Below are positions 55,592 through 56,113 of a stretch of DNA of 64,000 nucleotides, piece after piece (positions within the stretch are counted from its first letter, which is position 1; each line of letters starts with the position of its first letter). Under the pieces are notes generated by a model that saw only the letters and a program-made list of their open reading frames with translations, made no database searches and was not told the origin of the DNA. Both the position numbers and the translations under genes were made by a program. The stretch is from the NCBI RefSeq assembly GCF_013315695.1, contig NZ_CP054353.1, one strand, 5' to 3'. The DNA comes from Escherichia coli. Lineage in GTDB: Bacteria > Pseudomonadota > Gammaproteobacteria > Enterobacterales > Enterobacteriaceae.

Positions 55592-55994
55592 AATCTTTTC
55601 GCCTTATATATGTCTGGAGGTTTTGAGGATGATGATTAATTATTATCGCCAGAACGAAATGTGCACGAAAAATTGCTATAAGAATTGTGTCACTTTTATC
55701 ATTGTGATATGACCACTTCGTCATTAATCTTATGATCGTTTAAATAGTACCGCCAAATCACGCAACGAACTTTGCTGGATTCAGTTTATGCTGCTGCAAA
55801 TCCGCTCGCAGTAAACTTTTCAGACGCTCCGTGATGTTATCAGTGGTTCTTTAAGCGTTTTGCTGGTGTACTCACTACAAACGAATTGCGAATCGAATCA
55901 ATGTGAAACGGAAAGGTACAATCTCCCTTTTTTTAGTGTTAACATCGTTCAACCGGGTGGAAGGTGAGAGGTTAATGTCTTTCATTTGTGTACC

Positions 55995-56113
55995 TGATTG
56001 CGAACCAATTTAGCATTTGTTGGCTAGATGGTTTCGCAATGAACTGTTAATAAACAAATTTTTCTTTGTATGTGATCTTTCGTGTGGGTCACCACTGCAA
56101 ATAAGGATATAAA
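55995..56113 (+). promoter_or_regulatory. thrS leader / translational operator region
   Basis: Established ThrRS autoregulation through a tRNA-like operator in the leader; the sequence CGTGTGGGTCACCACTGCAAATAAGGA precedes the start. Boundaries are approximate. Confidence 0.5.

Follow-up and report, generated by a model that had tools for sequence, protein, structure and literature searches.

The long divergent espL1–thrS spacer of Escherichia coli is most likely a composite of the thrS control region and an espL1 flank

Introduction

In the 64,000-nucleotide stretch of E. coli DNA analysed here (the window), the divergent genes espL1 and thrS are separated by a spacer whose length and base composition ask for an explanation. 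The spacer occupies 55592–56113 (522 bp), between the espL1 ATG at 55591 (minus strand) and the thrS ATG at 56114. Of the 8 divergent intergenic spacers within the surrounding 50 kb, this one exceeds all the rest, which range from 86 to 445 bp. A first-pass annotation had reported a long divergent AT-rich spacer of ~520 bp at this place, and its coordinates prove exact: the G+C content is 37.7%, compared with 0.497 for the window and 0.499 for thrS. The gene it called arpB is named espL1 in the current RefSeq annotation. RefSeq places no feature inside the spacer in any strain examined, and the sequence is 100% identical to that of E. coli MS 21-1 and 97.7% identical to that of K-12.

Does the spacer owe its length to an element that annotation has missed—e.g. 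a small RNA, a silencing platform or a distant thrS promoter—or to the way in which the locus was put together? We conclude, with a probability of roughly 85%, that it is a composite of two unrelated pieces, the thrS control region and the espL1 flank, and that it holds no extra hidden element.

Results

Conservation divides the spacer in two

We compared the spacer with thrS loci from 80 other Enterobacterales species. Cross-genus similarity is limited to spacer positions ~307–522 (Salmonella arizonae, E. albertii, and Lelliottia), and for many genera only the last ~50 nt resemble the E. coli spacer, while positions 1–306 show no similarity in any of the 80 species. The spacer had been described as longer than the thrS promoter and operator need, and this holds on two counts: only the last ~219 bp are common to other genera, and isolates with IS junctions in the spacer (described below) keep an intact thrS operon with only ~243–262 bp upstream. 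The excess length is on the espL1/arpB side.

An alignment of 8 E. coli strains also separates the two sides. Specifically, 1.4% of columns are variable in 55898–56113, and the thrS coding sequence varies at 4.9% of third codon positions and at none of the first and second positions. For 55592–55897 the figure is 9.4%, against 10.1% in the 5' coding part of espL1, and all 29 variable columns of this stretch lie within 55592–55845, the last being 55845 itself. The boundary between constrained and drifting DNA is sharp at 55845/55846, the neighbouring segment having ~10% variable sites. At the scale of the species, 5344 of 5424 genomes match this strain at 99% identity or more in 55846–55951, but only 402 of ~5.4 thousand do so in 55740–55845.

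The thrS promoter and the case for distal control

55895..55951, plus strand: thrS promoter (cross-genus alignment; position fits the mapped start site)

The multiple alignment across genera places an extended -10 element, TGtTAACAT, at 55937–55945, with T-G-T-T-A-n-n-A-T invariant, and a conserved GGTrCAATC block at 55915–55923, the expected -35 position; upstream of ~55895, similarity to other genera is lost. The older thrS literature reportedly places the start of transcription at -162, in agreement with the mapped start at 55952. In K-12, the thrS start is given as 1800756 (-), with a 5' UTR of 162 and 112 reads (Kim et al. 2012, supplementary start-site table), and the upstream sequence printed there matches 55902–55952, the start site in the window being the A at 55952. 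It is the sole listed start between thrS and yniD in that table, where yniD forms the next row, and no arpB start is among the starts listed for K-12 (Kim et al. 2012).

If thrS control extended far upstream, through a second distal promoter or activator sites, the long spacer would serve thrS itself. Genomic SELEX lends this some substance, with a peak of RNA polymerase holoenzyme inside the spacer and a proposed TCGTCA-17-TAAAAT promoter ~360 nt upstream of the K-12 ATG, as does a 49-bp block at 55846–55894 that is invariant in E. coli. However, the only mapped start lies at -162, and the -10 hexamer of the proposed promoter is altered here by an indel at 55741, its match of 9/12 being at chance level. 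Hexamers were proposed by genomic SELEX for both the thrS and the arpB promoters in the spacer (Shimada 2014). Both are polymorphic, and we treated them as consensus matches and not as promoters; those for thrS also lie ~200 nt upstream of the mapped start, a misfit. Together with the behavior of the 49-bp block in natural isolates, considered further below, this makes distal control of thrS an unlikely reason for the length of the spacer.

The thrS leader carries the ThrRS operator

55952..56113, plus strand: thrS 5' UTR and ThrRS translational operator, 162 nt (start-site table, fold, and conservation)
55954..55996, plus strand: predicted 5' hairpin (minimum-energy and centroid structures)
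55997..56040, plus strand: distal operator hairpin, domain 4 (inverted repeat, fold, and covariation)
56041..56064, plus strand: A/U-rich linker, domain 3, largely unpaired in the fold
56065..56101, plus strand: proximal operator hairpin, domain 2 (fold; nearly invariant in 80 Enterobacterales)
56102..56116, plus strand: Shine-Dalgarno UAAGGA at 56102–56107 (assigned after PMC3858243) and thrS ATG at 56114, from the sequence

The leader is a 5' UTR directly upstream of, and including, the ribosome-binding site (start 55952, ATG 56114), and 5424 of 5425 E. coli genomes match it at 99% identity or more. Its first 150 nt (55952–56101) fold at -47.3 kcal/mol, with a z of -3.5 and none of 200 shuffles as good. 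In the proximal hairpin the upper stem pairs 56072–56078 with 56086–56092 in the fold, and the 7-nt loop UUCGUGU (56079–56085) carries CGU at 56081–56083; this loop mimics the anticodon loop of tRNA-Thr, G and U taking the places of positions 35 and 36. A second anticodon-arm-like hairpin, joined to it by the single-stranded linker, has an 8-nt loop, AUUUGUUG (56015–56022), with a Thr-anticodon-like UGU. This distal hairpin bears on the first-pass statement that the spacer has no recognisable repeat. That is correct for the rest of the spacer, where repeats amount to 10–14 nt matches at chance level, but one 18-nt inverted repeat (55997–56014 and 56023–56040) is present and is the distal hairpin itself. 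A resemblance of 8 nt, ATTGCGAA, that links 55885 with 55998 was also put down to chance.

The architecture is that of the classical ThrRS operator, in which two anticodon-arm mimics flank a split ribosome-binding site (PMC3858243, PMC9976931), the A/U-rich linker of domain 3 being the upstream half of that site (PMC3858243). As known from the literature, ThrRS bound to the operator represses translation in competition with the 30S subunit (PMC3858243; PMC9976931). The E. coli operator characterised in K-12 is the same locus with essentially the same sequence, and nothing of substance differs here: the 162-nt leader, the CGU proximal and UGU distal loops, the A/U-rich linker and the UAAGGA downstream are all shared. 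Autoregulation by ThrRS at this operator was reportedly worked out by the groups of Springer, Romby, Moine, and Ehresmann. Of the 522 bp, the operator explains only 162 bp, or ~219 bp with the promoter.

Covariation supports the distal hairpin. Among 35 species, 75.8% of cells are paired, compared with 25–44% when the partner is slid, and 15 of the 17 pairs change on both sides. The loop triplet across species is UGU, GGU, AGU, or CGU, i.e. NGU is kept.

Across Enterobacterales, the distal hairpin (55997–56040, about -125 to -85 from the ATG; loci L003–L082) falls into two unrelated sequence classes. Type A, the E. coli kind, has a loop R-A/U-N-NGU-K-R, e.g. AUUUGUUG, and in type B the stem resembles UUUCGC/GCGGGA and the loop, for example AGAGUGAA, has its AGU or GGU shifted one position towards the 5' end. 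By a rough count ~37 species carry type B and ~40 type A. Both types are found within Atlantibacter (L013/L014), Superficieibacter (L015/L023), Cedecea (L030/L032), and Phytobacter (L011/L045), and within Escherichia, where E. coli has type A and an Escherichia genome lacking espL1 (L003) has type B. Compensatory changes in the stem and a conserved G-U in the loop mark types A and B alike. Judged from these sequences, the two classes suggest a regulatory 5' UTR module that may be exchanged through recombination.

Mutations upstream of thrS for which an effect on antibiotic susceptibility has been reported or proposed are located in the leader. For example, an avibactam-resistant K-12 mutant has an IS2 insertion 145–150 nt upstream of thrS, a site that falls within the predicted 5' hairpin (55954–55996). 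A mutation at K-12 1,802,589, for which borrelidin resistance and relief of autoregulation were only hypothesised by its authors, maps to 56095 in the proximal hairpin.

The well-characterised thrS operator is undetected by any Rfam family: a permissive search of 55300–56400 with Rfam 15 (E up to 10) left it unmatched. In E. coli genomes the leader (55952–56113) has 5499 matching places in 5425 genomes, the ~74 extra ones being possibly partial; each genome carries one full-length copy, and the espL1-proximal part has only 9 extra places.

K-12 transcript maps imply a leader fragment and list no independent small RNA

56035 (K-12 1,802,649) and 56045 (K-12 1,802,639), plus strand: RNA 3' ends, at and just past the distal hairpin

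In K-12, Term-seq places 3' ends at 1802649 and 1802639 on the minus strand (Adams et al. 2021, supplementary tables), the latter (-69) with a Rho score of 0.60, which is not significant, and an intrinsic-terminator score of 4.76 (Adams et al. 2021). These two, both on the thrS strand, are the only Term-seq 3' ends listed between 1,802,571 and 1,803,093, and none is listed on either strand between 1,802,650 and 1,803,093. The SMRT-Cappable-seq supplements mention neither thrS nor arpB. Among the entries listed, the K-12 maps of starts and 3' ends therefore show only thrS leader transcripts, with the proviso that both tables come from K-12 alone (espL1 frameshifted, laboratory growth) and record dominant peaks, so that weak transcripts could be missed. 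This is the outcome that the first-pass annotation had itself named as refuting its proposal, here for the small RNA.

The start at 55952 and the Term-seq ends within the leader therefore imply a leader fragment of 84–94 nt that comprises two hairpins, the 5' one and the distal anticodon mimic. The fragment resembles the 5' UTR-derived fragments of Adams et al. (2021), in that the thrS leader likewise has dominant ends, at -69 and -79, and the -69 end is alike in its intrinsic-terminator score of 4.76 and its lack of Rho dependence. It is unmentioned in the main text of that study, and it lies largely outside 55592–55990, the stretch in which the first-pass annotation had suggested looking for an unannotated small RNA. 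An abundant RNA of 84–94 nt could be an attenuation product, or a decoy acting in trans that titrates ThrRS. We regard a separate function, whether for this RNA or for the invariant 49-bp block, as very unlikely.

The small RNA suggested for 55592–55990 was not borne out by the terminator search, Rfam, folding or conservation, and the K-12 maps list nothing there apart from the thrS start. An independent small RNA or small protein encoded in the espL1-proximal part and missed by annotation would account for ~300 bp to which no function is assigned, where three plus-strand promoter-like sites lie in or beside the segment and small ORFs of 20–56 codons are present. However, promoter-like sites are at chance level (5, against a shuffled mean of 2.8 and sd of 1.8), terminator-like sites are absent in this strain and in K-12, and the only Rfam match in the permissive search of 55300–56400 is a spurious one to snoU13 (16 bits, against a gathering score of 46). 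The espL1 side also lacks a folding signal, its polymorphism is neutral-like and includes indels, and in K-12 it has no start site and no 3' end among those listed; isolates without part or all of this segment exist. Its own promoter or start site, a defined 3' end, and conservation above the neutral background, by which a small-RNA gene would be recognised, are all missing.

The longest of the small ORFs is as follows.

55554..55724, minus strand: 56-codon ORF overlapping the espL1 start (ORF list)

It starts with an ATG in the spacer, so the first-pass statement that no ORF exceeds ~40 codons is too strong as worded, but the ORF is broken in other strains and the substance of that statement survives. 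We rejected it as a gene, since the frame is disrupted in 4 of 8 strains: two that carry deletions have a stop at codon 4, a third lacks the ATG, and BL21 is frameshifted. Taken together, a missed small RNA or small protein is highly improbable, and the composite reading, in which the espL1-proximal part is only a flank, is kept.

The espL1-side flank drifts at a near-neutral rate

55592..55845: espL1 5' flank, fast-evolving and E. coli-specific, with no other detectable feature (conservation)

The flank is single-copy and present in 5425 of 5426 complete E. coli genomes. A distant BLAST search of E. coli genomes and plasmids with 55592–55900 found no second copy; four "plasmid" matches are records of 0.42–4.9 Mb, which we took to be mislabelled chromosomes or chromosome fragments. 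With no paralogous copy in E. coli, the flank is therefore not a shared effector-gene promoter module. In the 8-strain alignment it drifts at about the neutral rate, like the often-inactivated espL1, and carries indels at 55605–55606, 55725, and 55741. For ten windows of 120 nt covering 55592–55951, examined on both strands, shuffled sequence folds as well as the native one (z from -0.55 to +0.65); one window reaches a z of -1.72, which is not significant for ten tests.

An espL1 promoter in the spacer is plausible, and 55592–55845 presumably holds an unmapped one together with the 5' UTR, although no minus-strand site in the spacer reaches 9/12 consensus matches. Like the flanks of other acquired, H-NS-silenced EspL/ShET2 effector genes, this one is AT-rich, confined to one species, placed beside an effector homologue that is often a pseudogene, and without a transcript in the K-12 laboratory maps; it differs in that no regulatory motif or start site was found.

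H-NS silences horizontally acquired AT-rich DNA. H-NS could accordingly nucleate in the spacer and silence espL1 from there, which would also account for the lack of an espL1 transcript in K-12; the 37–39% G+C of spacer and gene, in a genome of 50%, and the nature of espL1 as a horizontally acquired effector gene both fit. The high-affinity H-NS motif, reportedly described by Lang et al. in 2007, is TCGATAAATT. The spacer contains a single match to it, with 2 mismatches, at 55665–55674. The only perfect copy in the 64 kb lies at 54666–54675, inside the espL1 ORF, where near-matches also cluster, and the genomic SELEX table leaves H-NS unflagged at the thrS/arpB spacer while flagging it at neighbouring spacers. 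The earlier proposal of H-NS nucleation sites in the spacer is reasonable in general terms but gains no specific support from these matches, which say little about the spacer either way. On motif positions, H-NS, if it binds, would more likely nucleate within espL1 and spread. A spacer acting as the silencing platform is thus possible but doubtful, though less so than the other alternatives considered here.

espL1 and the DNA probably inserted upstream of thrS

53693..55591, minus strand: espL1 (arpB) ORF, the longest ORF, 632 aa, intact in this strain (RefSeq name)

The espL1 product combines an N-terminal ShET2 domain (Pfam PF07906, E 2e-45) with C-terminal ankyrin repeats (Ank_2) and is a ShET2/EspL-family type III effector homologue; the gene sits in an AT-rich island of 38.9% G+C that is confined to E. 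coli. The ORF is intact in this strain (632 aa) and in O157:H7, and has been broken independently by a frameshift in K-12 and BL21 and by an internal stop in strain 503440, while three further strains have an internal deletion of roughly codons 266–558. Its 5' coding part has 10.1% variable columns among the 8 strains, with 9.8, 7.6, and 12.2% at codon positions 1, 2, and 3; such near-equal variation is as expected if selection on espL1 were relaxed.

No homologue of espL1 lies upstream of thrS in the 80 other Enterobacterales loci. Directly upstream of thrS we find ydiY in Citrobacter, Superficieibacter, Cedecea, and the espL1-less Escherichia genome (L003), and of these only L003 and the Citrobacter loci gave a detectable yniD between ydiY and thrS. 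The E. coli-specific DNA extends from ~107 bp beyond the espL1 stop to ~55897. Its right-hand edge is ambiguous, since cross-species homology ends at ~55895 and polymorphism jumps at 55845/55846.

In E. albertii (L027, 400–1140), a different AT-rich stretch of ~700 bp (26–41% G+C) lies directly upstream of the thrS promoter; it has no ORF of at least 100 aa and shares no ancestry with the espL1 flank of E. coli. Foreign or decaying DNA thus seems to settle repeatedly at the point immediately upstream of the thrS promoter.

The invariant 49-bp block and natural rearrangements

55846..55894: 49-bp block, E. coli-specific and nearly invariant, -106 to -58 from the thrS start

Between the two edges lies a block in which the 8 strains do not differ at any site and to which neither E. 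albertii nor Salmonella can be aligned. One reading is an upstream promoter element, another simply the edge of the low-diversity thrS haplotype. If it were a promoter element, the insertion of the espL1 island could have given rise to it as one specific to the lineage. The invariance speaks for distal control of thrS, yet by our estimate the chance of seeing zero variable sites in 49 bp, given a neutral rate like that of thrS third codon positions, is ~0.09, and the invariance may mark no more than the haplotype edge.

Natural isolates bear directly on the block. In ET479, an IS5-family element replaces everything from ydiY through espL1 and the spacer up to ~55851, and PSJ-07 has an IS1 at 55871. 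In FG92-1, the junction, deduced from the ends of BLAST matches, is at ~55734, after spacer position 143, and is followed by an IS1, an ~18-kb prophage remnant, and then an E. albertii-like thrS upstream region (85% identity). The thrS-infC operon is intact in all three strains, and DNA upstream of ~-81 from the start is therefore dispensable for viability. The junctions at ~55851 and 55871 truncate or delete the block in viable isolates, which argues against an essential role for it and against distal thrS control.

In FG92-1 (L090, NZ_CP142677.1, 2998–21504) the prophage remnant is lambdoid, with ybcN, ninE, rusA, Q, essD, and tail-fibre genes, and a P-loop NTPase gene is also present between the espL1-proximal spacer and thrS. 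The thrS promoter and leader of this otherwise ordinary E. coli represent a mosaic replacement.

Discussion

The evidence points to a simple history for the spacer. The thrS-proximal ~219 bp (55895–56113) is probably the ancestral thrS control region, in whose leader, according to the literature, two anticodon-arm-like hairpins bind the ThrRS dimer, which competes with the ribosome for the split ribosome-binding site. In the E. coli lineage, an AT-rich insertion of ~2.3 kb (about 53586–55897) would then have entered between yniD and the thrS promoter, and the espL1-proximal ~254 bp (55592–55845) would have arrived with it as the upstream flank of espL1, adding ~250–300 bp. As espL1 decayed in most lineages, this flank would have drifted at about the neutral rate, carrying no more than the espL1 5' UTR and a promoter that is weak or silenced. 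The boundaries, the start site, the 3' ends, the conservation pattern and the covariation of the hairpin are shown by the data; the insertion history and an espL1 promoter in the drifting part are inferred. The spacer would then be long because the espL1 island was inserted beside the thrS promoter, and not because an extra element is hidden in it.

All the functional parts identified here are already known: on one side the promoter, leader, and operator of thrS, on the other espL1/arpB, an effector gene or pseudogene depending on the strain. The alignment of the leader from 35 species could seed an Rfam-type model for the operator. If the leader fragment did act as a decoy for ThrRS, it would add a second layer to the textbook thrS autoregulatory circuit.

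For the biology of E. coli, the analysis removes a candidate "unexplained long intergenic region", whose length is probably a by-product of an island insertion beside a well-studied control region. It also provides precise coordinates for the thrS promoter and operator in this strain, and a population-scale view of the 55845/55846 boundary.
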